DNA of 64,000 nucleotides from an uncultured Bacteroidota bacterium (GTDB lineage: Bacteria > Bacteroidota > Bacteroidia > Bacteroidales > WCHB1-69), in assembly GCA_902774175.1 (NCBI GenBank), contig CACYHG010000003.1:7730-71729 (forward strand), written 5' to 3'. Positions 6,287 to 32,325 of the stretch are shown here, in pieces. Each line of letters begins with the position of its first letter. Position 1 is the stretch's first letter. The position numbers and the translations under genes were made by a program. The notes beneath the pieces are model-generated. The model saw nothing but the letters and a program-made list of their open reading frames with translations. It searched no databases and was not told the DNA's origin.

Positions 6287-7054
6287 TGCAAACCGTTTCA
6301 AATCCGCCTCCCCGTTTTCCATCACCAGGTAGCTGGCATGATGTATCCAGTCCCCCGTGTTGATGTACCGGCTTTTTTCCGTCAGGGTATAGTCACACGG
6401 CAGGTGCCGGTGGCCGAAAACGAAATAATCGAAAGATTGCTGCCGCAGCACTTCGCGGCAGTATCTGATGATGGGTTCCTCCTCGCCCCGGAAAACCTTG
6501 TCCGCCTCCTCATGGGCGCGGCGGCTCTTGAAGGAGACCGCCCGAGCCAGGCTAAACGCCTGCCGGGGATGCAGCATGGCAAACAGCCGCTGGTTGAACG
6601 GCTGCGCATAAATCCACTTGATAATGTGATAGCCATAATCTTTGGGATCAAGCGCATCGCCATGCCCCATACGGACCTTTTTCCCGTTTATCTCAACATC
6701 CACAATCCCGCGAATCTGTTTCAGTCCAATCTCATCCTGAAGGTAGGAAAAACTCCACATGTCGTGGTTGCCCAGAATGTAATATACCTGCACGCCTCTG
6801 TCAACAAGCGATGCCAGCCTTCCAAGAAAGCGCAGGCAGTGCTTGGGCACCACATCCCTGTATTCAAACCAGAAGTCGAACACGTCGCCCAGCAGGAACA
6901 GATGTGTGGCATCACCCGCAATACTGTCCAGAAAGGCGCACAGACGCGCCTCCCTCTCCCGTGAGGCATCCCAGTCGGGCAGGCCGAAATGACAGTCAGA
7001 GAGGAAAAAGACCTTGCCATTGACCGGTTCCATTGGATTGATTTTATCGCGCAT
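6284..7054 (-). CDS. lpxH: UDP-2,3-diacylglucosamine diphosphatase (LpxH)
   Basis: Calcineurin-like metallophosphoesterase motifs in the LpxH arrangement (FLSDCHFG, GDVFDFWFEY, GNHD, GHRH). Confidence 0.9.
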   Translation of the reverse strand: MRDKINPMEPVNGKVFFLSDCHFGLPDWDASREREARLCAFLDSIAGDATHLFLLGDVFDFWFEYRDVVPKHCLRFLGRLASLVDRGVQVYYILGNHDMWSFSYLQDEIGLKQIRGIVDVEINGKKVRMGHGDALDPKDYGYHIIKWIYAQPFNQRLFAMLHPRQAFSLARAVSFKSRRAHEEADKVFRGEEEPIIRYCREVLRQQSFDYFVFGHRHLPCDYTLTEKSRYINTGDWIHHASYLVMENGEADLKRFA

Positions 7055-7069
7055 TTTCTATAAATGTAT

Positions 7070-7489
7070 TCAGGTCCGGCGAAGCTTGTGCACATTGGAG
7101 GCATCAAGCGACTGCTGCAGCAGGATGCGCTGTATGGTGTCAATCAGCAGCAGGAACATTTTCAGGTCGCGGTCGCGGAACCATTGCATGGCAGACGTAT
7201 CCTGACGGCAGGCCGCCGCAAAAAGGGAGAGGAAATCATAATGGAACCTCTCCAGCCATTCGGTCGCCTCATCCTCATCATCGATGGAGTCGCTCAGGGC
7301 CGCGAATTCCGGATAACCGTTTTTCAAAAGCCAGTCAAAAGCCTCCGTGTCGGAATTGACACTGGCCGCCAAAGCCGCCAGCTCCGGATAAGCCTGCAGG
7401 TAGAGTTCCATGAAGTTCTTCTTTTTCTGGAGGCACATGTTGAAGCCCATCAGAACCTTAACATCATAATCAGTCAGACAGTGCCTCAC
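7070..7489 (-). CDS. hypothetical protein
   Basis: 139-aa ORF with a GTGA overlap to the upstream PhoH-like stop. Three loosely repeated xW(L/F)xxxxxxxF units. Start uncertain (internal ATGs). Confidence 0.5.
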   Translation of the reverse strand: MRHCLTDYDVKVLMGFNMCLQKKKNFMELYLQAYPELAALAASVNSDTEAFDWLLKNGYPEFAALSDSIDDEDEATEWLERFHYDFLSLFAAACRQDTSAMQWFRDRDLKMFLLLIDTIQRILLQQSLDASNVHKLRRT

Positions 7490-8490
7490 TCCGCGCCCTC
7501 CTGTTCCGAGGCCGCCTCACGCGTCGCCCGCTGCGCCTCATCCAAAGCCTCCTGCCGCGCGTATGCCCCTACGATGGCCGTCACCAAACGGTGCCGCACA
7601 ATGTCGCACGAATCCATGAAAATCATGCTGATTCCGGGTATATCCTTCAAAATCCGGGTGGCCTGCACCAATCCGGATTTCTGGTGCCGTGGCAGGTCAA
7701 CCTGCGTCGCGTCCCCCGTGATGAAGAACTTGGCGTTCTCACCCATCCGGGTCAGGAACATCTTAAGCTGTGTGGCGGTCGCATTCTGCGCCTCGTCCAA
7801 TATCACGTATGCATGGTCAAGCGTCCTGCCGCGCATAAAGGCCAGCGGAGCTATCTCTATTGTCTTGTCCTCCATGTAGGAGAGGAGCCGCTGCGGCGGA
7901 AGCATGTCCCTCAGCGCATCATAGAGCGGCTGCAGGTACGGGTCTAACTTGTCGCGCATGTCTCCGGGCAAAAAACCGAGATTCTCCCCAGCCTCCACCG
8001 CAGGCCGCGTCAGTATTATCCTTTTTATCTCCTTATTTTTCAAAGCCCTGACAGCCAAGGCCACCGCTGTATAGGTTTTGCCGGTTCCAGCCGGACCGAT
8101 GGCGAATATCAGATCGTTTGAAGCCGACTCGCGCAGCATCCGCAACTGGTTGGGCGTGCGTGCGCGGATAGCCTTCCCGTCCCTTCCGTACAGGATAAGG
8201 TCTCCCTCCGGCGAGCCCTCCTCCCCAATATCCTGCGCATCCTCCTCCCACAAACGGAGCAGGTCGTCGGTGCGGAGCCGCCCGTACTTGTGCAGGAACT
8301 GCCGCATCCTTTCAAAAAAGGCGGAAAATGCCTCCAGCTGCCCCTCATCTCCCATTGCACGCAGCTCCGTCCCACGCGCGACCAGCTTCAACTGCGGGAA
8401 AAGCCGCGAGAGGAACGAGACATTGTCGTTGTTGACCCCATACAGGTCCGTCAGCTCCGACGGCTCAATAACTATCTTTATGTCAGTCAT
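7486..8490 (-). CDS. phoH: PhoH-family ATPase
   Basis: Walker A GPAGTGKTYTAVA, LDEAQN, ITGDATQVDLP. Typical PhoH length. Confidence 0.93.
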   Translation of the reverse strand: MTDIKIVIEPSELTDLYGVNNDNVSFLSRLFPQLKLVARGTELRAMGDEGQLEAFSAFFERMRQFLHKYGRLRTDDLLRLWEEDAQDIGEEGSPEGDLILYGRDGKAIRARTPNQLRMLRESASNDLIFAIGPAGTGKTYTAVALAVRALKNKEIKRIILTRPAVEAGENLGFLPGDMRDKLDPYLQPLYDALRDMLPPQRLLSYMEDKTIEIAPLAFMRGRTLDHAYVILDEAQNATATQLKMFLTRMGENAKFFITGDATQVDLPRHQKSGLVQATRILKDIPGISMIFMDSCDIVRHRLVTAIVGAYARQEALDEAQRATREAASEQEGAE

Positions 8491-8496
8491 GGGCTG

Positions 8497-11400
8497 CTAC
8501 TTTACGTTGGCTTTCAGCGATTGCGTGATCATCTGCTTGAGCTTCATGGTCTCCTGCTCTACAACATTTCGTTTTTCAGGCTTGAACAAGGTGGCGTACT
8601 GCGGCTTCTCAAGCTTGTACTTCATCTTGTCGGGGGAACCGTATACATTCAGCCCCAGACGTGCAGGCAGCGGGCTCTCCACCAGTGAGAGGTGGCAGTC
8701 GTAATTCTGGTTGATCACATAGTGTCCCGCAACAATGGCCTGGTACTTGTCCATCGACACCAGGAATGGATAGAGGTCCACATTCTTCTGGAAGACCGTC
8801 ATCTCCACAGATATGCTGTCCACCTTGTTTTCGGTCTGCTTCTTGAACCTCAGATATTTGGCGATGGTTGAGAAGGTCTCGTTGTCCAGCACCACCAGAT
8901 CCTGCCCGCTTATGGAGGCGGCTGCACGCAAGGTGGAATACTTGATGTCGTAATTGGCGTTCAGGTTGGTCTGTGCGGCAAAATGGAACTCCGCCCTGCC
9001 GGCGAAACTCTTCAGCATCGGGACAATTGTGTCGATGTCGGGAATCATCTCAATCAGGTCCGCAATCTGGATATCCATCAGATGGAAGTCCACATAGGCG
9101 AACAGGTGGTTCATCCGCGGGGACTTGTAGATGGCGGTCAGCTGCATCCGTGCAGCATCGCAGGTGAAGCCCATCTCCTCCAGCACCAGCACGCCGTCCT
9201 TTACAGTCACCGTACCGCCCAAATCCTCCACAATGGTCTCACCGACCAGCAGTTTGGTGGCATTGGTGTTCAGCGTGACATCCATGCCGAGCGGCACCAT
9301 GAAAGGCATCGCTTCCGACGGGTCAGGCTCTGGTTCAGGCTCCGCAAGGGAATCCGCACCGAGGTTCATACCGCTGAAGAAATCCATCAGATAGTTTACA
9401 TCTATATAATCCGAAACCAAATCCAGATCGGCCTTCAGCATCGCCTCGTCATTCAGGAATTCGGACAGATGCAGCACCTTCCCCGACAGGTTAAGCTCCG
9501 TTTCACCCAATCCGAACCGCCCGGATTTCAAATCCAGTGTCGAAGGGGTAAGGGCGAATGAAACCTCCGGAATTGAGACCTCATCCTTGAACATATCCAT
9601 GCCGACTGTCGCCTTGCTTAGCCTGAAGTTCAGATGTGGGCTCCACTGCTCCAGCAGGTTGCCCGGCGTGGAGTCATACACCGCGTTGCCGGACACGGAC
9701 ATGCCCTGCGTCACAGTCTTCAGGAAAGAACCCATCCGTACAGCCATGGCTGTCTGCGAGTAGTCGACCGTAAAGGCCGGACTGGAGGCATCCTTCTTGG
9801 AAGGGGTCATTGTGACGTGGCCCTTCGGATGGCTTATGCCGGCATCCAGCGTGTCCATCACGGCATGAAGCGATGAGATGTCGAAATCACAGGCAAGCGA
9901 GAGCAGTTTGGTCGTATCCATGAAATCGGACAGACCCACCAGCAGGTCGGGATTGTCCAGACTGGCATTCATACCGTTGGACATGGAGACTTTAAGACCG
10001 CCTCCTGTCACCTTAGCCTGCATCAGCTCATTGAATTTCTTATTTGTCTTTTGGTTTGGTGAGGGCAACTGTATTCCGAGCGTCAGCGCGTCCGAACGGA
10101 GCTGAAGGCTGTCGTAGTCCGCATCTAACGACTTGAACGCCAGCGTACCCTTCGCCTGCATCCGCTGCAGTGCCACCTGCTGCAGATCATCCAAGTTGAA
10201 TTTCACCTTCATGTTAGGCTGCATGGTGCCGCGCATAGTGAGTGGCAGCGAATCAGGCAAAAACGGCTCCACATCCGGCAGGTTCACCTTGCCGGTCAGC
10301 AGCAGGTCACAACAGAGCTTGTCTAACAAATCGGTGATTTTTCCCTGCAGCTGGACTTTGCTTTTCCCGGTCTCAGCCGCAAAATTGTGCACCTCCACAT
10401 TGGAGCGGGACTGCCTGTTCAGATCAAGCAAAGCACGGGCATCCAGCACGATATTTTTCACAGGATTTGGCAGAAGCTCCTGATCCTCAAATTTTCCCTG
10501 TTTTAACAGGAGATTGGCGGCAACCTCAGGCATGAGCGAATCCGCATAGACACCCTTCACCGTACCGTCCAGCGTCAGGAATCCGTCGACGCGCATCCCT
10601 TCCAAAACTCCGGGGGCGAACCGCTCCACCCAGGGGAGCAGTTCCGGCACCTCCACGGTCCGCAGCGCAAAATCCACGGCACAGTCGAAAGAGGAGAAGG
10701 AGGTGTCCTCCGCCTGCACGCTTCCGTCCAAGGTCAGCAGCAGGTTGTCCAGCCCCACCTCCGCCTTGTCCAGCTGGAGCCTGCGCTGCCCCATGTCATA
10801 TTTGACAGGAATCATTATATCCAGAGCCGCGCTGTCAGCATAACGGAGCGAATCCATCGCAAACGTCAGCGCAGGCACGGTCAGCTGCACCACACCATCC
10901 GCCGCATTCTCCTTCATCTCACCCTTGAACCGCAGCCGCACATCTCCCAACGCGGCATCCATCCGCGAGGAATCAGCCAGATGGAACATTATCCGCCCGA
11001 TGTCGGCCTTCAGCTGCCCGTCAAAGCTCTCCTCAGAAAGCTCGGCATCGGCACGTGTGTTGAAATCGTCCAGATGCAGATTCATGTGCGAAGCCTCATC
11101 CACGTATGTGACATTCAGATGCTCCAAATTCAGCTTTTTTGCGCTTATCCATTCGAACGGGAACTCGGAAGCGGTGGTGTCCAGAGTGTCGGAAGGTGCC
11201 AGCACATCAAAATTCTGGCGGCCCTCCGCATCGGTATAAAGCAGGGCATCACCGTTTTTCAGATGCAGGCTCTTCACCTCCAGCACATCCTCCTTCAGCA
11301 GTTTGCGTATGTTCACCGCCGCATCGAGCCGCTCCACGCGAAGCAGGGTGTCCGAGGGTGCGCCCTTCATCGGATTCAGCAGCAGCACATCGTCCACCCG

Positions 11401-18948: not shown

Positions 18949-20082
18949 TCAGATGCAGGCCAGCATCTTTTCGGCAATTATTGTTGAAGCGTTTCCGTCA
19001 CCGAAAACGGGTTTTAGGTTTAATTTTTTATTTTTAAATACATTATACGCACCAATTATCCTGTCGGAATCCGCATCGGCTATGATGCCGGCTCCCTGCT
19101 CCACAATTTCGACCCACTCCGTTTCAGGCCGCATGATGACGCACGGCCGTGCGAAAAAGAAGGCCTCCTTCTGCACTCCGCCCGAATCGGTCAGCACCAT
19201 ACACGCATTCTGCTCCAATGCTGTCATCTCCAGAAATGAAACAGGCGGAACAATCCTGACATTGGAATGCAGCAACATTTCATGGAGTTCTTTCTCCAAA
19301 TTGGTCTCCAACAATTTGGCGGTGCGCGGATGCAGCGGAAGCGCCACAGCGCAATCCTCCGAAATCTGCAGCAATGCCTTGAAAATGGAGGTCAGACGGT
19401 GCGGGTCGTCCGTATTGTTGTCGCGATGGATGGTGGCCAGCACATAGCGGTCCGGCTCCAGTGCATTATCTTTAAGAACAGTGGTTTTTTCAGCCGCAAT
19501 CCGGGCAAAATAGAGACTGTTGTCATACATTATATCCCCGCTGTTGTATACCTGACGCCCCCTGCCATTGGCAAATACCGCCTTGGAATCCATAAATCCT
19601 TCATGGCGAAGATTTTCCATAGCAGTTTCCGTCGGAGCGAACAGCAGGCTTGAAAGATGGTCGCACACTATGCGGTTCTGCTCCTCCGGCATGGTCATGT
19701 TGAAGGAACGCAGCCCCGCCTCAACATGAACGACAGGCACATGCAGCTTGCAGGCAGCCACCGCTCCCGCCAGGGTCGAATTGGTGTCGCCGTACACTAC
19801 CAACGCATCAAAATGTTCAGCCTGCAGCACCTTCTCAATGCCGGCTATCATTTTCGCAGTCTGCTCGCCGTGGCTTCCCGACCCCACATGCAGGTTATAG
19901 TCCGGCTGTGGAATGCCTAACTCGTCGAAGAAGACCTGCGACATGTTGCTGTCGTAGTGCTGGCCGGTATGCAGAATCTTTTCCATAATGCGGCCGGCGA
20001 AGCCGTTGCGGATGACCCGCGACAATGCCGCCGCCTTGATAATCTGCGGACGGGCGCCTATGATGGTAAGTATTTTAAGCAT
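18949..20082 (-). CDS. UDP-N-acetylglucosamine 2-epimerase family protein (paralog 1)
   Basis: GARPQIIKAA, GDTNSTLAGA, HVEAGLRSFN, TDSGGVQKEA. Confidence 0.9.
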   Translation of the reverse strand: MLKILTIIGARPQIIKAAALSRVIRNGFAGRIMEKILHTGQHYDSNMSQVFFDELGIPQPDYNLHVGSGSHGEQTAKMIAGIEKVLQAEHFDALVVYGDTNSTLAGAVAACKLHVPVVHVEAGLRSFNMTMPEEQNRIVCDHLSSLLFAPTETAMENLRHEGFMDSKAVFANGRGRQVYNSGDIMYDNSLYFARIAAEKTTVLKDNALEPDRYVLATIHRDNNTDDPHRLTSIFKALLQISEDCAVALPLHPRTAKLLETNLEKELHEMLLHSNVRIVPPVSFLEMTALEQNACMVLTDSGGVQKEAFFFARPCVIMRPETEWVEIVEQGAGIIADADSDRIIGAYNVFKNKKLNLKPVFGDGNASTIIAEKMLACI

Positions 20083-20113: not shown

Positions 20114-20893
20114 TTATTTTTTTACAATGAGCATCTTTTTGACAATGTTCTTTATTTTCTGCGAAACCAATTCTTTACCCCATGGGAGCAGGTGGTCTGT
20201 CCAACGCTGCGGATGAGTCGTCATCATCAGCTGGTGTGGAAATGTCACTTCCTCTACAGCCCGCACCACGTCATCAGTGGAATGATAAACCAGTCCCTTT
20301 TCAATCCACCGGTCCTGATGTAGCGGTATCCTGTCGCGGACACTCACTTTGAATCCATCCCAACGCCGGCCGGTATCGGTAAGATAGAACAGCTTTGAAA
20401 AATCAGTGTCGAAATATGGTTCCCCGATGATTCCAAAATCGCGATAGTTGTAGGTTTTCCACAAATCCCTGCCATCGAACGGGCTGCGTGGCGAGCCATG
20501 CATGCAGACAGTCTTTACGGGATAGAACTTTCGGAAATAGTCCAACTGCTCCTTGAAATGGATTATGGCTTTTTCCGCATCGCCCTGGCAAATCGCCATA
20601 TCCTCATAATGATAGCCAATTTCATGACCCAATGAGGCGATTTCCCTGATGATTTCAGGCTTGTTGCTCTGCGGCACAACACGGAAATAATAGGATGCAT
20701 GCATTCCCAGCGAAGCCTCTATTTTTGCAGTTGCCAGGGAATTCTCCGCCTTCAGGTCCACATCATGGCGCAGGATGACAAAACGGTCGGATTCCACCCT
20801 CCCATCACAATAATCTTCAAATGTGATGAACTGATAGCCTGCCCTTTCAAAGCACAGAAGCAACTGGGTATATTTTTTTAATGTGAAATCCAT
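20114..20893 (-). CDS. polysaccharide deacetylase-family protein
   Basis: LRHDVD...YYFR...GYHY pattern of the NodB-like/divergent deacetylase family. 259 aa. Confidence 0.75.
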   Translation of the reverse strand: MDFTLKKYTQLLLCFERAGYQFITFEDYCDGRVESDRFVILRHDVDLKAENSLATAKIEASLGMHASYYFRVVPQSNKPEIIREIASLGHEIGYHYEDMAICQGDAEKAIIHFKEQLDYFRKFYPVKTVCMHGSPRSPFDGRDLWKTYNYRDFGIIGEPYFDTDFSKLFYLTDTGRRWDGFKVSVRDRIPLHQDRWIEKGLVYHSTDDVVRAVEEVTFPHQLMMTTHPQRWTDHLLPWGKELVSQKIKNIVKKMLIVKK

Positions 20894-20896
20894 AAT

Positions 20897-21015
20897 CTAT
20901 TGCACAATGTCACGCATCTTCTCACCTATCCTTGCCCTCCACCGCTCCGGCACCTGCGCCTCAACTGCGAACACATAGGTGAAATTATTACGGGTATTTT
21001 TTACAATCCTATAAA
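20897..21015 (-). pseudogene. orphaned 3' tail of an unidentified gene
   Basis: Hand translation gives ...NNFTYVFAVEAQVPERWRARIGEKMRDIVQ*, with the stop 3 nt before the deacetylase ATG (operon-like spacing). Visibly GC-richer than its neighbours. No start codon or N-terminal part upstream, only the repeat copies. Confidence 0.35.
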
Positions 21016-21044
21016 GGAAAAAATATTTTCGGTTATGGAAAAAT
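21016..21044. repeat. direct repeat family 1, degenerate copy A
   Basis: GGAAAAAATATTTTCGGTTATGGAAAAAT. Shares the core AT-A-Y-TTTCGGTTATGGA with copy B. Confidence 0.75.
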
Positions 21045-21056
21045 ATGCACCTTAAA

Positions 21057-21087
21057 GCAAAAAAATACTTTCGGTTATGGATAAGGG
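21057..21087. repeat. direct repeat family 1, copy B (8 nt downstream of the cassette gene stop)
   Basis: GCAAAAAAATACTTTCGGTTATGGATAAGGG. 27 of 31 aligned positions identical to copy C. Confidence 0.85.
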
Positions 21088-21095
21088 TGTGGCCT

Positions 21096-22613
21096 TCAAT
21101 CTTCCTTTTTTTGTTCTATAATTTTAAGCCCCTTTTGCGTCAAATAATAGGCCTGACCTTTACGTTTGGGATTATCCGGATACAGCATCGCCAAAAAACC
21201 ATCACGAAGAGCAGGATTCAAATAATTCTTTCTAAAATTATCTCCACCCTTCAATCCTATGCCTTTCATCATTTCAATGACATTTATCGTATGTTTCCCG
21301 ACTATTTCCAACAATTTTAAAACATGGACGTCTACGCATTCTACAGAATTTGTTTCTTTACCTGTTTCTTTACCTGTTTCTTTACCTGTTTCTTTACCTG
21401 TTTCTTTACCTGTTTTCCTCCAAAGCACCACCGAAAAGCCTTCATCCTGACGAAATTCCGGCTTACGCAACCCCATATCCACGCACCTATCAATCAAATC
21501 ATTGGTGCCTGTACCAACTTGTTCTATGTAACCGGCCAAATAAACAGGATTTGCCAACAATGGATTAACAGGCAACGAAGTATGTTCACCATTCAATTTC
21601 TTAATAGTCATCCCCTTCGGCAAACGACCAGGATTCCATACTTCCAACCGATCCTTGAAAAGCATCACCTGAACAGAACCGTTACTACGATAATCACGGT
21701 GAACCACAGCATTTACTATTGCTTCTGTCACTGCCTGAACAGGCAGCTCATGCTGAATATCCACTTGCGCCGACTCTGTCCTTTCCCCCACACGGGAATC
21801 AATACGCGACATGACAAAAGCCACCGCCTGATCCACCACTTCAAACACAGTTCCACCAAATATCTCCATTGTAACTAAAGGCTTCTGTATTTTCGTCCCA
21901 TAAAAGTGGACACACTTTACCGTTGACGAAACAAACCATAGTTGCGGGTCTTTAGCAAACAGTAGGAGCGCAGCATTGGAAACACGTTCATCCTCCGAAA
22001 TCAAATGCAAGCTGCTCAATATTTTATGGATATTATCATCACTATAGGCAAGCGGAAAATTTCTTTTCTCACGTGCCATACCTGTCCACCAACGGATCTT
22101 TTCACTATCCAAATCTCCAATGGAAGCCTCCTGATGCAATGTTGCATCAAAAGGGGCATAATGAAGATAACCCTTTAATATCAAATAATAAACCAAAGCA
22201 GCATAGACAGCACTTTTCATTTCCTCCACCGAACAGAACGTGTTACGGACCACATCCTGCTCCACCCTGCCTATAAAGGCATTTTCCTTCGGATGTCTTT
22301 GAGCAGCAGTTTTAATCAACACAATCCTATACTTGTGATTTTCTGTGGCTTTGTCATATTCCCGTTCTGTAGGAGAAACACCTTTAGCATCCTCATTGCC
22401 ATATTTTTCACCTAAAAGACCCAAATACACATCAGAATCTGCTACCTCAGACAAGTATGCCTGCTCAGCGGAAACATCCTTTGCCGGCAACTCCTCAAAC
22501 AGAAAAGGATCAAAGAATCTTCCAAGAACAGCATCCTGACGGATATACGCCACCAACTCGCGACGTTCTGTGGCAAATTCCTGTTGTACGCTGCTAATGA
22601 AAAGTTTAATCAT
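21096..22613 (-). CDS. DUF4062 (TIR-like) / HATPase_c_4 / C-terminal winged-helix protein (RecG-like putative DNA-binding family)
   Basis: N-terminus LFISSVQQEFATERRELV...DSDVYLGLLGEKYG...SPTEREYDKA matches the DUF4062 pattern. Middle NAALLLFAKDPQLWF and AIVNAVVHRDY...NPGRLP...VGTGTNDL match the HATPase_c_4 family. (KETG)5 linker, then a wHTH-like tail. Confidence 0.8.
   Translation of the reverse strand: MIKLFISSVQQEFATERRELVAYIRQDAVLGRFFDPFLFEELPAKDVSAEQAYLSEVADSDVYLGLLGEKYGNEDAKGVSPTEREYDKATENHKYRIVLIKTAAQRHPKENAFIGRVEQDVVRNTFCSVEEMKSAVYAALVYYLILKGYLHYAPFDATLHQEASIGDLDSEKIRWWTGMAREKRNFPLAYSDDNIHKILSSLHLISEDERVSNAALLLFAKDPQLWFVSSTVKCVHFYGTKIQKPLVTMEIFGGTVFEVVDQAVAFVMSRIDSRVGERTESAQVDIQHELPVQAVTEAIVNAVVHRDYRSNGSVQVMLFKDRLEVWNPGRLPKGMTIKKLNGEHTSLPVNPLLANPVYLAGYIEQVGTGTNDLIDRCVDMGLRKPEFRQDEGFSVVLWRKTGKETGKETGKETGKETGKETNSVECVDVHVLKLLEIVGKHTINVIEMMKGIGLKGGDNFRKNYLNPALRDGFLAMLYPDNPKRKGQAYYLTQKGLKIIEQKKED
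21351..21414. repeat. perfect 12-bp tandem repeat x5 (GTTTCTTTACCT) encoding (KETG)5
   Basis: Five identical head-to-tail units plus a 4-nt partial sixth, inside CDS 21096..22613. Confidence 0.95.
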
Positions 22614-22623
22614 AATTCTGTTA

Positions 22624-22653
22624 GCAAAAAGTACTTTCGGTTATAGACAAGGG
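22624..22653. repeat. direct repeat family 1, copy C (10 nt upstream of the cassette gene start)
   Basis: GCAAAAAGTACTTTCGGTTATAGACAAGGG, in the 47-nt gap between the acetyltransferase stop and the cassette gene ATG. Confidence 0.85.
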
Positions 22654-22660
22654 AAGCATA

Positions 22661-23182
22661 TTAGGCATTCCTATATCTGATAACCCTCGCAGGATTTCCA
22701 CCAACAATTGAATAATCCGGCACATCCTTCGTAACAACAGATCCTGCACCGATAATAGCCCCATGACCTATCCGCCTGCAACCCGGAAGAATAATGGAAC
22801 GGCTTCCTATCCAGACATCACCTCCTATATGCAACGGTGTTTTCCCCTTTGAACCTTGAAGCCCCATCGGAACATCAGTCCTATCAAATTTATGACCTCC
22901 ACCCAAAATCATAACATCCTCTCCCATCATCAAATAATCATCAATGGTCAAAATACAGTTATGCAGTGTGAAATTCTTGCCAAATCCTACACTATTTCCA
23001 ACCCGGATATTTTTCCCGTTTCCAAAATATGCACCTTTTTCCACGTTCAGTTTTTCACCGCATTCATCAAACATGTGCTTACAACACCAACGGCGGAAAC
23101 TACGCGAAACCTTTCCAAAAACAGGCATGGTTGACTTGGGAAAATGCTTGGCAAATCCATAATATAACAAAGAAAAAAACAT
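22661..23182 (-). CDS. hexapeptide-repeat O-acetyltransferase (LacA/WcaF-like)
   Basis: Left-handed beta-helix repeats ([34 protein letters not shown]). Confidence 0.85.
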
Positions 23183-23197
23183 AATGGCAAGCTATAC

Positions 23198-24286
23198 TTA
23201 AATAATTGATAACATATCAACAATCCTTTCTGCAGCATGTCCATCCCACAACGGTGGAACACCACCTTTTTTCCACTGTCCTGCAAACAGTTTGTCCAAA
23301 GCAGGCTTAATATTATCTGGATTTGTCCCTATCAGTTCATTAGTCCCAATTGTGCAAGTTTCAGGACGTTCCGTATTGTCGCGCAGAGTGATACACGGCA
23401 CGCCCATCACTGTTGTCTCCTCGGTGATGCCGCCACTGTCAGTAACCACCACTTTGGCTCTTTCAACCAAATAGTTAAACTCCAAGTAACCCATAGGTTC
23501 AACAATATGGAGGTTGTCGGCATGGATACCTAACTCATCAAAAATCTTTGCAGTGCGCGGATGGATGGGGAAAACAACCGGCAAACCATGTACATTTGTA
23601 ACTATTTCATTCATCAGGCGTTTCAATTTCCCCGCCTCATCAACATTGGCAGGACGGTGCATTGTCAAGACAATGTATTGCTGCGGCTGGAGCGCCAACA
23701 CATCACAGACCGCCGGTTTTACAAATCTTGGACGATTGGCCAGCAAGGTGTCTATCATCACATTGCCGACGAAAAAGAGGTTTTTCTCCTCCACTCCAAA
23801 ACGGCGCAGATTGGCGTTGGCCACCTCGGAGGTGGTAAAGAAATAATCCGCCAGACTATCAGTCACCATGCGGTTAATTTCCTCAGGCATAGTCAAATCC
23901 CAAGAACGTATGCCGGCTTCCACATGTGCAACCTTTGTGCATAGTTTCTTAGCTACAATGGAGCAGGCCATTGTGGAAGTCACATCACCCACCACCAGAA
24001 CAAGGTCAGTGGGATGTTCCATCAAGTCCTTTTCAAATGCCACCATGATGGCTGCCGTCTGCTCCGCCTGCGTGCCGCCGCCACAACCCAAATTGACACC
24101 CGGCTTGGGAATGTTGAGTTCTTCAAAAAAGGTCTCGCTCATCTGCCGGTCATAATGCTGACCAGTATGCACAAGACGATAATGGATGTTCTTCCCTTTT
24201 TTTTCTGCCTTTTGGATTGCATGAATCAAAGGGGCAATCTTCATGAAATTGGGGCGTGCGCCCGCTATAAGAGTTATATGGTGCAT
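23198..24286 (-). CDS. UDP-N-acetylglucosamine 2-epimerase, non-hydrolysing type (paralog 2)
   Basis: GARPNFMKIAP, GDVTSTMAC, HVEAGIRSWD, TDSGGITEET. Confidence 0.92.
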   Translation of the reverse strand: MHHITLIAGARPNFMKIAPLIHAIQKAEKKGKNIHYRLVHTGQHYDRQMSETFFEELNIPKPGVNLGCGGGTQAEQTAAIMVAFEKDLMEHPTDLVLVVGDVTSTMACSIVAKKLCTKVAHVEAGIRSWDLTMPEEINRMVTDSLADYFFTTSEVANANLRRFGVEEKNLFFVGNVMIDTLLANRPRFVKPAVCDVLALQPQQYIVLTMHRPANVDEAGKLKRLMNEIVTNVHGLPVVFPIHPRTAKIFDELGIHADNLHIVEPMGYLEFNYLVERAKVVVTDSGGITEETTVMGVPCITLRDNTERPETCTIGTNELIGTNPDNIKPALDKLFAGQWKKGGVPPLWDGHAAERIVDMLSII

Positions 24287-30842: not shown

Positions 30843-32325
30843 TTAGTCAACCCTTAAAAAGCCCCTTTTTCCCGTTCCACGGCTACAGCCGGTATCCGTT
30901 TCACAGGAGGCATAATCAATAATACGCTATAAAATGGCTGGAAAATCTCCAGACGCAACAGGGCAAAAAGAAGCCTCATGGCTCTTTTGAAGTTGAAAGC
31001 GGCAGCGGACAGCATCACATTGATGTTGTCACCAAACACCCTTGCATAGAAGTTCCGGCAGAGCCAGTGATCCGATTTCAGATGGCCGATGACTGGCTCT
31101 ATACCAGCTCGTTTGCAGAACAGTTCGTGCTTCTTCCGTTTGATGTAGTAACTGTCACCCTTATTCGGCACACCTGGTATCACCACCTCCGTCTGCTCTG
31201 ACCGCTTCTGGCCACGGTATCCGCGGTCCCCGGCAAGCAGCTTCGGCCTGCGGCCGGTCAAACGCTCTGTCTGTTCAAGGCTGGCATCAATCGTGTGTCC
31301 ATAATATTCGTTACGGAATGACAGTGCACCTACTATCAGTCCGTTCCATGTCCGGACAATGGAGACTTTGTTCCCGAACTCGTATTTCTTGTGTTCCTTC
31401 CCTTTGCTAATGCACTGGACTTCCGGTTCATGGAGCGAATAAATTTTGTCCTTGCTGTCCTTCCTCTGGGACAACACTTTGAAATACATGGCAATGCTTT
31501 CGGCATAACCCTCAAGCAAACCTCGCTTTTCAAGGTTGCGTTCCAGTTCGCGCAACAGACGTAGCGCAATTGTCTTCATCTTCCGGTCCGCTTTCAGTGC
31601 CTTCTTCCTGTTCTTCGGATGGTTGCGGAATCGCTGGTCCCGGGCGAGTTCCTTGACCACAAACTTGTAGCTCTGGCGCATCGGCAGCTTTAATTTACCG
31701 TTAATCTTCAACACCCTGCCGATAATCTTCCTGGTCAGTTTTGCATCTGTCGGAAACGTGACGTTCTTCTCCTGCACTGTCGAGTCGATGAACGCTTTGT
31801 CCGTCTCATCATGGTCATCGTTCACGCGAACACTTTCCTTGAGGATGAGTTCTATGCCCGACTCCCCGATGCGCTTGCGGAACGCCACAAGTTCCGTCGG
31901 CGTGCATGGAACTCCGGTCTGGAGCTCCTGCTCTCCACAGAAATACTGGTAGTACACATTCTCCTGCCACTGCTCCACAACACTCTCGTCAGAAACATTG
32001 CGCACGTGCTTCAGTATCAGCAGCCCCACCATCCTGCGGATGGGCTTGCACGGACGGCCATTGTCCTCGCAATAGAGGGGATTGAACGCCTCCTCAAACA
32101 CATTCCAATCTATCTTGTTGGCTAAAAGATATAACGGGTGCTTTTGGTTGAGTTGGGATTCCAAGTTGAAAAACAATGTCTGCTGGTTGCTACGTGTCGG
32201 TTTTGTGTACATGTTTCTGCAAGTTTTATGCTGCAAAGATAACACTTTTTTGCATTCAAAACACAATTTTTCTTAACTTTTTTTACACAATTTCAAATTG
32301 TTAAGGCTTTTTGAGGGGCGACTAA
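30843..32325 (-). mobile_element. IS5-family insertion sequence, intact (1483 bp)
   Basis: Terminal inverted repeats TTAGTCAACCCTTAAAAAGCC and TTAGTCGCCCCTCAAAAAGCC (18 of 21 identical). 4-bp direct target duplication CTAA at 30839..30842 and 32326..32329. Single DDE transposase ORF. Confidence 0.88.
30854..32212 (-). CDS. IS5-family DDE transposase
   Basis: ORF trimmed to MYTKPTRSNQQTLFF. N-terminal DUF772-like region (PCKPIRRMVGLLILKH) and DDE_Tnp_1 region (DSTVQEKN...LAGDRGY...IEPVIGHLK). Confidence 0.9.
   Translation of the reverse strand: MYTKPTRSNQQTLFFNLESQLNQKHPLYLLANKIDWNVFEEAFNPLYCEDNGRPCKPIRRMVGLLILKHVRNVSDESVVEQWQENVYYQYFCGEQELQTGVPCTPTELVAFRKRIGESGIELILKESVRVNDDHDETDKAFIDSTVQEKNVTFPTDAKLTRKIIGRVLKINGKLKLPMRQSYKFVVKELARDQRFRNHPKNRKKALKADRKMKTIALRLLRELERNLEKRGLLEGYAESIAMYFKVLSQRKDSKDKIYSLHEPEVQCISKGKEHKKYEFGNKVSIVRTWNGLIVGALSFRNEYYGHTIDASLEQTERLTGRRPKLLAGDRGYRGQKRSEQTEVVIPGVPNKGDSYYIKRKKHELFCKRAGIEPVIGHLKSDHWLCRNFYARVFGDNINVMLSAAAFNFKRAMRLLFALLRLEIFQPFYSVLLIMPPVKRIPAVAVEREKGAF

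Follow-up and report, generated by a model that had tools for sequence, protein, structure and literature searches.

A DUF4062-GHKL ATPase gene with predicted NADase and defence function on a probable exchangeable cassette in a capsule operon of uncultured Bacteroidales

DUF4062 is a TIR-like domain with nicotinamide adenine dinucleotide (NAD+) hydrolase (NADase) activity, and the single proteins known as Swarozyc that carry it confer abortive-infection defence which depends on residue E97 and is triggered by the binding of their winged-helix auxiliary domain to the phage portal (bioRxiv 10.64898/2026.05.01.722283). The Evangelion systems are also single DUF4062 genes, with diversified auxiliary regions, and act by NAD+ depletion (bioRxiv 10.64898/2026.06.25.731849). 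Among the prokaryotic Schlafen proteins the commonest composition is Schlafen-HisKinase (34.0%), followed by Schlafen-HisKinase-HTH (19.2%; HTH, helix-turn-helix) (PMC13056530); the 'Schlatpase' supradomain has PF13749 as its GHKL ATPase, and in SLFN-pAgo the Schlafen effector is activated by a tetramerisation driven by the binding of ATP to this domain (bioRxiv 10.64898/2026.05.29.728809). A GHKL or HATPase partner of DUF4062 is mentioned in the text of neither DUF4062 preprint (bioRxiv 10.64898/2026.05.01.722283, 10.64898/2026.06.25.731849). Here we describe such a combination in a 64,000-nucleotide (nt) stretch of contig CACYHG010000003.1 from an uncultured Bacteroidota bacterium (order Bacteroidales), referred to below as the window. 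The protein of 505 amino acids (aa) is encoded by the minus-strand open reading frame (ORF) 21096..22613, a single gene inside a glycan (capsule) operon. We favour, with a probability of roughly 0.6, the reading that it is an NADase which acts in abortive infection from a single gene, with a new architecture within the Swarozyc/Evangelion kind, and is carried on a recombination-exchanged cassette in the capsule operon.

The domain composition proposed in a previous reading of the same DNA made from the sequence alone (hereafter the sequence-only reading) is supported by three Pfam matches, all above the gathering score: DUF4062 (PF13271) at aa 3-89 (E 2.7e-19; 69.6 bits against a cutoff of 24.7, with the whole profile covered), HATPase_c_4 (PF13749) at aa 313-396 (E 4.6e-19; 68.6 bits) and a Fic-like_C winged helix at aa 431-492 (21138..21323, minus strand; E 9.5e-17), which also matches PDB entry 4rgl at E 8.5e-8 and is a candidate sensor. 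The N-terminal DUF4062/TIR-like domain extends from aa 3 to about aa 146 (22176..22607, minus strand), the codon of the putative catalytic Glu83 lying at 22365-22367. It is followed by a body common to Schlafen-ATPase proteins (aa 154-400; 21414..22154, minus strand), which comprises a middle domain and the PF13749 GHKL ATPase with its N-box (E297/N301), NPG327-329 and GTGT367-370 motifs. The repeat linker already noticed between the GHKL domain and the winged helix is (TGKE)5, an in-frame 12-nt tandem repeat at 21351..21415 (minus strand).

The resemblance to Swarozyc (KpSwz; PDB 10wc, 11cq, 11cv) and Evangelion (Eva01-04) lies in the N-terminal DUF4062 TIR-like domain with its S-x-T-E-x-E/Y motif, in the arrangement of effector and C-terminal auxiliary region within one gene, and in a patchy horizontal spread; the auxiliary domain of Swarozyc has a winged-helix fold too. 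A PDB sequence search aligns SPTE83REY of the window protein with SFTE97KAF of KpSwz (10wc, 'TIR/DUF4062'), a similarity confined to aa 36-100 and of E 0.15 on its own. In this alignment E83 falls on position 82 of the 10wc chain, equivalent to E97 provided that the chain begins with residue 16; its catalytic-glutamate counterparts are E97 in KpSwz, to which the alignment was made, and E87 in Eva01. Across 34 homologs of 54-78% identity, S7, S8, E12, R17, G68, Y71, G72, S80, P81, T82, E83 and E85 are invariant, as are the Bergerat-fold motifs of the GHKL domain (E297/N301/H305/R306, N327-P-G329 and G367-T-G-T370-x-D372). The AlphaFold2 model has a predicted local distance difference test score (pLDDT) of 71.7 overall and of about 80-90 in the N-terminal domain, for which Foldseek finds the CMP N-glycosidase BcmB, nucleoside 2'-deoxyribosyltransferases (NDT), DNPH1 and the SARM1 TIR domain at target template-modelling scores of 0.6-0.72.

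The known DUF4062 systems differ from the window protein in what follows the effector. Here the auxiliary region consists of a GHKL ATPase module of about 250 aa and the Fic-like_C winged helix; it is not homologous to that of KpSwz, the protein with which it was compared, and matches 3lmm and 4rgl instead (PDB and Foldseek searches). They differ also in setting, which here is a Bacteroidales capsule operon and not a defence island or a resistance plasmid. For the complete model the top Foldseek match in the PDB is 3lmm (DIP2311, AlbA_2/HATPase_c_4 family; E 4.5e-12), followed by 4rgl (Fic C-terminal domain), and 3lmm matches the body by sequence as well as by fold. From aa 154 to its end the protein is homologous to the Schlatpase-HTH proteins (SLFN_AlbA_2, PF13749 and HTH; DIP2311, 3lmm and the RzAgo GHKL of SLFN-pAgo), with conserved ATP-binding motifs, and the same Fic-like_C or DeoR-type HTH endings occur there. 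Unlike these proteins, it lacks the Schlafen tRNA-nuclease domain (the AlbA_2 profile PF04326 gives no match in the 505 aa at E up to 1) and has an NADase-type domain instead, so that the expected output would be NAD+ depletion and not tRNA cleavage. The remark in the sequence-only reading that relatives carry Schlafen AlbA_2 at this position is borne out by homolog P0246, in which an SLFN_AlbA_2 N-terminus precedes HATPase_c_4 and Fic-like_C and which is 58% identical to the window protein over aa 154-503; another protein, P0376, consists of AlbA_2, GHKL and a DeoR-type HTH.

The TIR/NDT-like fold is recovered by AlphaFold2 and Foldseek. PADLOC returns only local matches at aa 154-377, to pAgo and pAgo-associated (Aga) models, as fits the shared GHKL module; these matches bear the label 'PNTD', for which the literature searched gave no explanation and which we read only as similarity in the GHKL region. 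Experimental precedent for DUF4062 in defence is nonetheless available from both preprints (bioRxiv 10.64898/2026.05.01.722283, 10.64898/2026.06.25.731849), and we base a defence function for the present architecture on homology, on the conserved catalytic residues and on modular logic. The N-terminal DUF4062 would act as a TIR-like NAD+ glycohydrolase with Glu83 as its catalytic residue, and this effector would sit on a body normal to prokaryotic Schlafen nucleases, namely the PF13749 GHKL ATPase with a C-terminal winged helix. The winged helix and/or the middle domain would sense a phage component, and clustering of the TIR-like domains would switch on NAD+ hydrolysis, halting the infected cell. 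NADase activity, phage defence, the trigger and the role of ATP are what we infer here.

The family is large: more than 3000 homologs have the same architecture (at the 90% clustering level), mostly in Bacteroidales, and an exhaustive HMMER search gave 552 representative clusters at E up to 1e-30; an exact-protein look-up found no record of the 505-aa protein. Protein P0016 shows 80% identity as far as aa 400 and no relationship thereafter, which indicates that the winged helix has been exchanged exactly at the (TGKE)n linker. The linker itself has 5, 2, 2, 5, 5, 2, 4 and 3 copies of its unit across eight loci with otherwise near-identical genes, a variation that may tune linker length or may simply be slippage. 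Copy number differs even within one locus type, being 5 in the window and 2 in L005. Two fusion proteins of the 880-900 aa class were also observed, one (P0311) having TIR_2 and DUF4062 with two GHKL modules and the other (P0312) being a tandem of two DUF4062-GHKL units; these fusions suggest that the functional unit is at least a dimer.

Homologs are found in varied surroundings. Those with 76% (L002) and 68% (L003) identity to the window protein lie in glycan loci; one of 61% is at a glycan-locus edge beside AAA_15/21 and Metallophos-nSTAND (L012), one of 63% is beside Kinase-PolyVal, DUF4143 and PRiA4 (L054), one of 60% stands alone among housekeeping genes (L016) and one of 54% neighbours HNH_4, TIR_2 and DUF4143 (L015). 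On Legionella plasmids, full-length homologs of 45-47% identity adjoin rep/parAB. Plasmid copies beside such maintenance genes, the patchy, horizontal distribution and the occupation of a slot that elsewhere holds the hipBA toxin-antitoxin pair (see below) would also suit a selfish or addiction module, or an anti-plasmid or inter-strain effector, in which an NADase toxin restrained by its own body stabilises the DNA that carries it, in a niche like that of hipBA. We consider this unlikely, as both tested DUF4062 single-gene systems act against phage and no antitoxin-like partner is conserved alongside the gene in the loci compared, although toxin-antitoxin and abortive-infection roles are not mutually exclusive.

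Some of the more distant homologs have features of their own. The 61% paralog (9524-10777 in L012; also in L013 and L014) was recovered from samples that also yielded the window-type locus, and a 417-aa ORF without Pfam or PADLOC match, which may be its partner gene, always lies 8 nt past it. In the Legionella anisa plasmid NZ_CP082853.1 (L053) the homolog is at 6992-8503; on pLPP-type plasmids of about 130 kb the annotation splits the gene into two ORFs ('ATP-binding protein' and 'DUF4062 domain-containing protein'), and these copies may be frameshifted. A phage origin was considered and rejected: a single IMG/VR contig carries a homolog (45% identity), and GenBank phages give only partial matches to the GHKL region.

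The second part of the favoured reading concerns the DNA. ORF 21096..22613 is surrounded by one long minus-strand glycan operon, in which Pfam identifies among the window ORFs a tyrosine-kinase-like Wzc, Poly_export (Wza), two UDP-GlcNAc 2-epimerases, hexapeptide transferases, glycosyltransferases, DegT and an asparagine synthase-like gene. The best reading of the comparison with related loci (metagenome contigs and two metagenome-assembled genomes named 'Bacteroidales bacterium') is that the gene is not one of capsule synthesis and forms a cassette of about 1.6 kb which has recently spread among diverged capsule loci of uncultured Bacteroidales. The segment 20952-22653 is about 99-100% identical between loci whose flanking capsule genes have diverged to 60-90% identity. 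Compared with L024 in windows of 100 nt, identity is 97-100% from 22608 to about 21108 and then drops to 50-96% through the downstream gene, the epimerase, wza and wzc; with both L024 and L025 most of 22608-21208 reaches 99-100% per 100 nt. With the linker repeat left out, the gene has 0-11 mismatches in 1518 nt across seven loci. The downstream gene, called a deacetylase in the sequence-only reading and deAc here (20114..20893, minus strand; 259 aa), is a putative glycan gene and the right-hand homology anchor; its identity to the other cassette-bearing loci is 63-96%, as against 99-100% for the cassette itself. It has no Pfam match at E up to 0.001, and its many homologs are unnamed 'hypothetical proteins'. 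Upstream (to the left), three different neighbour genes are found across the occupied alleles: the hexapeptide acyltransferase at 22661..23182 (minus strand), present in the window-type allele only, and in its place a 364-aa or a 340-aa gene in the others.

The cassette is bracketed by short direct repeats, and a repeat search confirmed the sequence-only reading on the two copies on either side of 21096..22613 (C and B) and on a degenerate third (A). The three form one family (D2) at 21018-21045, 21060-21087 and 22626-22653, with identities of 82%, 100% and 89%. Copy C, upstream (22624..22653, minus strand; sense CCCTTGTCTATAACCGAAAGTACTTTTTGC), ends 10 nt before the ATG; copy B, downstream (21057..21090, minus strand; sense CACCCTTATCCATAACCGAAAGTATTTTTTTGC), begins 8 nt past the stop codon, or 5 nt past it with the extended CAC, and makes up a 42-bp tandem pair with copy A (21016..21045, minus strand). 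At up to three mismatches the 28-mer of B matches only B and C in the window, none of 100 dinucleotide shuffles was matched, and the 16-nt core occurs in the window at these three sites only. In every locus (L001, L024, L025, L044) B accompanies the gene's 3' end. The outer (left) half of C is polymorphic between loci (G/A, T/C) and its inner (right) half constant, the reverse being true of B, which is the pattern expected from crossover within the repeat.

In the window and in L005 the order from left to right is hexapeptide transferase, C, gene, B, A, hipA tail (described below) and deAc; L025 and L039 have the same order behind the 364-aa gene, and L024 and L010 behind the 340-aa gene. In L001 the 364-aa gene is followed by C, gene, B, 32 nt and deAc, without repeat A and the hipA tail. 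A different arrangement is found in L044-L049: epimerase, B', A', hipB, hipA, deAc, the gene (with no C, its ATG overlapping the deAc stop), B'' and an epimerase fragment. By BLAST, homology on the left stops at 22653, where C ends on its outer side, for L001, L025 and L039, and at 22669 for L024 and L010; on the right it stops either where B ends (21063/21064 in L001 and L044) or within the hipA tail, at about 20952. An empty-site allele, looked for since the sequence-only reading, was found in L050 and L051, although it carries two repeat copies and not the single one anticipated. These loci have no DUF4062 gene and are otherwise collinear with the window at 82-84% identity (epimerase, hexapeptide transferase, deAc, epimerase, Wza, Wzc, EamA), and within the 162-nt spacer of the empty allele are one copy resembling B, one resembling A and the final 21 nt of hipA.

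These alleles bear on the possibility that nothing has moved, that is, that the gene is simply the first of a conserved right-hand capsule block, that serotype switching swaps the genes to its left, and that the repeats, as promoter or upstream elements present in duplicate, play no part in recombination. A left boundary common to all alleles is what a border between conserved and variable genes would give, each repeat copy stands 10-35 nt before a start codon in several contexts, and there is no recombinase nearby, the sole mobile-element gene found being a DUF772 transposase 8 kb away. We nevertheless judge this explanation quite unlikely: the gene is 99-100% identical where the remainder of the 'conserved block' reaches only 50-96%, L044-L049 have this gene on the downstream side of deAc, its ATG overlapping the deAc stop, L001 is devoid of repeat A and of the hipA tail, empty alleles exist, and the repeat is not an exact fit to the Bacteroidetes TAnnTTTG promoter motif.

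The orphan gene tail next to the cassette belongs to hipA of a toxin-antitoxin pair and not to a glycan gene. It ends 3 nt before the ATG of deAc, at the stop codon 20897-20899 of a frame terminating in FAVEAQVPERWRARIGEKMRDIVQ, and, as first noted, nothing of its 5' part is present in the 64-kb window. The C-terminus of the HipA protein of L044 (Pfam Couple_hipA, HipA_C), which ends in QFAAEAQVPERWRARIGEKMRDIVQ, identifies it as the 3' end of hipA: in a tblastn search aa 392-415 of HipA match 20971-20900 at 96% identity, so that the remnant at 20897..20972 (minus strand) consists of the last 24 codons and the stop. The intact version of the truncated gene exists in L044-L049, where the hipBA pair, preceded by the B+A repeat pair, occupies the same slot. 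In sequence and mechanism hipBA (a Ser/Thr kinase toxin with an Xre antitoxin) is unrelated to the DUF4062 gene, and only this remnant of it is left in the window. Window 21090-21011 and the sequence from 20972 onward match L044; the 38 nt between them (20973..21010, minus strand) have no match there and are filler at the hipBA deletion joint. In the window, in L024 and in L025 the near-identical segment includes this joint, so that the deletion scar moves with the cassette. The pair is also gone from L050, through a different, larger deletion and with no cassette. The earlier proposal that the cassette replaced most of a resident gene therefore holds as to the truncation of hipA and is corrected as to its cause, since the absence of hipBA from the empty L050 and the scar travelling with the cassette show that insertion alone did not destroy hipBA.

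A possible route of replacement emerges from L044, in which a 45-nt left flank identical to that of the occupied L024 is followed by B'+A' and then by intact hipB and hipA. On the left, the resident site of about 30 bp would supply short homology; on the right, the hipA tail and deAc would supply long homology; and 'B' A' hipBA' would be replaced by 'C gene B A scar' through homology-facilitated recombination. Such a replacement would account for a left edge that is exact, for the mosaic make-up of C, for a right edge within the tail and for the joining of hipBA loss to gene gain. Alternatively, a circular intermediate might recombine at the site and likewise duplicate it. Integron cassettes and the 'minimal mobile elements' of the Neisseria type are also single-gene cargo units, and the present unit is similar to them in consisting of a single co-oriented gene for which no promoter was found (by a sigma-70-type scan, uninformative for Bacteroidota), in its short repeated end sites, in the alternative cargo at a fixed slot and in containing no recombinase. 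It differs from an integron cassette in that the window repeat is a plain direct repeat without an attC-like hairpin (fold energies are weak, -5.4 kcal/mol for B and -1.3 kcal/mol for C) and without inverted repeats within or between copies. No recombinase or IntI-type integrase was seen among the 31 window ORFs scanned with Pfam, a set that excludes the ORFs at 38-49 kb, and the right-hand junction lies in ordinary homologous sequence. On these three grounds (hairpin, integrase and right junction) we infer that the exchange is more likely to involve general or homology-facilitated recombination than a site-specific mechanism.

In L044 (8320-12798; also in L045 and L046), three stacked units were observed, each made up of a deAc 3' end, an accessory gene and an epimerase 5' end; one accessory gene is the DUF4062 gene and the other two are ATPase_2 (PF01637) genes, with a weak PADLOC match of ATPase_2 to PDC-S27. 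The flanks of these units are 81-99% identical to the window and differ from each other by up to about 19%, which indicates an origin in different alleles and not in one fresh duplication, and the sequences point to recombination between slot alleles rather than to transposition.

What the repeat is natively can be approached from its distribution. It is also found ahead of hipBA where no DUF4062 gene adjoins, and copies stand 10-35 nt upstream of the start codons of the DUF4062 gene, of hipB, of deAc in L001 and of the epimerase fragment in L044, which suggests an upstream or promoter-type element or a HipB operator. A generic element scattered over the genome, a concern raised with the sequence-only reading, was rejected: a strict pattern run over 185,579 GTDB species genomes gave 3 matches, of which 1 was real, and a looser pattern run over the JGI metagenomes gave 27, of which 4 were real, all of them adjoining this gene, the remaining metagenome matches being unrelated coding sequence. 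The repeat is a resident site, duplicated in occupied alleles, and is neither cassette-specific nor genome-wide.

The same distribution speaks against the suggestion that the repeats are operators of a locus-specific transcription regulator. Under that suggestion the winged helix would bind C for autoregulation and B/A for control of the downstream export genes, with the GHKL and DUF4062 domains sensing NAD+ or a nucleotide sugar. A C-terminal winged helix is present, the repeats are just upstream of gene starts, and the gene, which runs in the direction of the operon, is encountered repeatedly in glycan loci. Moreover, no terminator-like hairpin follows 21096..22613, so that the gene would be readable with the operon (the scan's sigma-70 consensus is uninformative for Bacteroidota promoters, and it was used solely for the absence of a terminator). 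A regulator is nonetheless highly improbable, since the repeats occur without the gene (in L050, and ahead of hipBA in L044) and the gene family occurs without the repeats, as in the 76% and 68% homologs of other glycan loci. Family members also occur among housekeeping genes, in defence-like surroundings and on plasmids, close relatives differ by exchange of the winged helix, the catalytic glutamate is invariant, and the winged-helix auxiliary domain of Swarozyc binds a phage portal and not DNA.

Several points weigh against an NADase defence gene on a mobile cassette. The defence and NADase roles of this architecture are predictions, and the region following DUF4062 is unrelated to that of Swarozyc, so that the trigger is not transferable. 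No NCBIfam family matches the protein, PADLOC 2023 has no model for this architecture, and the GHKL lid and the linker are poorly modelled (at aa 343-369 and 402-423 the pLDDT is below 50). Glycan loci, with the gene oriented along the operon, make up about half of the contexts seen, which would suit a locus-linked function too, and in L002 the gene is tightly packed, with gaps of 4-5 nt. As for movement, the closest empty allele is 16-18% diverged and hence not a direct progenitor, and all comparison loci are short-read metagenome contigs, in which a shared stretch of 1.7 kb can yield chimeric joins of left and right flanks; individual junctions, being direct sequence, are sound, and the combinations of left and right flanks are less certain.

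Two other features of the operon were recorded. A DUF772 transposase of insertion-sequence type lies at 30854-32266, between a GT2 glycosyltransferase and a DegT aminotransferase gene. The two UDP-GlcNAc 2-epimerase paralogs (18949-20082 and 23198-24286) flank the cassette region on either side and have short repeated stretches in common (families D3-D9), and they could be substrates for rearrangement.

A broader and more speculative proposal, doubtful as a whole, is that capsule operons of gut and rumen Bacteroidales hold fixed slots marked by a portable site of about 30 bp, in which immune and toxin modules are swapped, and even stacked, by short-homology recombination, so that the defence gene is switched together with the capsule type, the protein described here being a new ATP-gated NADase. 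If so, the modules would be DUF4062-GHKL NADases, hipBA and ATPase_2 genes, the co-transcribed capsule type would be the phage receptor or shield, and the GHKL switch of Schlafen nucleases would control a TIR-like effector. A literature search yielded no account of defence genes inside Bacteroides capsule operons. The locus indicates that defence-type and toxin-antitoxin genes can sit there and be missed by defence-island searches, and genes so placed may be co-regulated with the surface structure that phages recognise. Its occupied, empty and hipBA alleles constitute a natural experiment on gene movement without a dedicated recombinase. At the level of the protein, the Schlafen GHKL/winged-helix body would be an interchangeable platform that can bear an NADase in place of a tRNA nuclease, linking two defence families first characterised in 2025-2026, in a large family found mostly in Bacteroidales, a group in which few defence systems have been tested.

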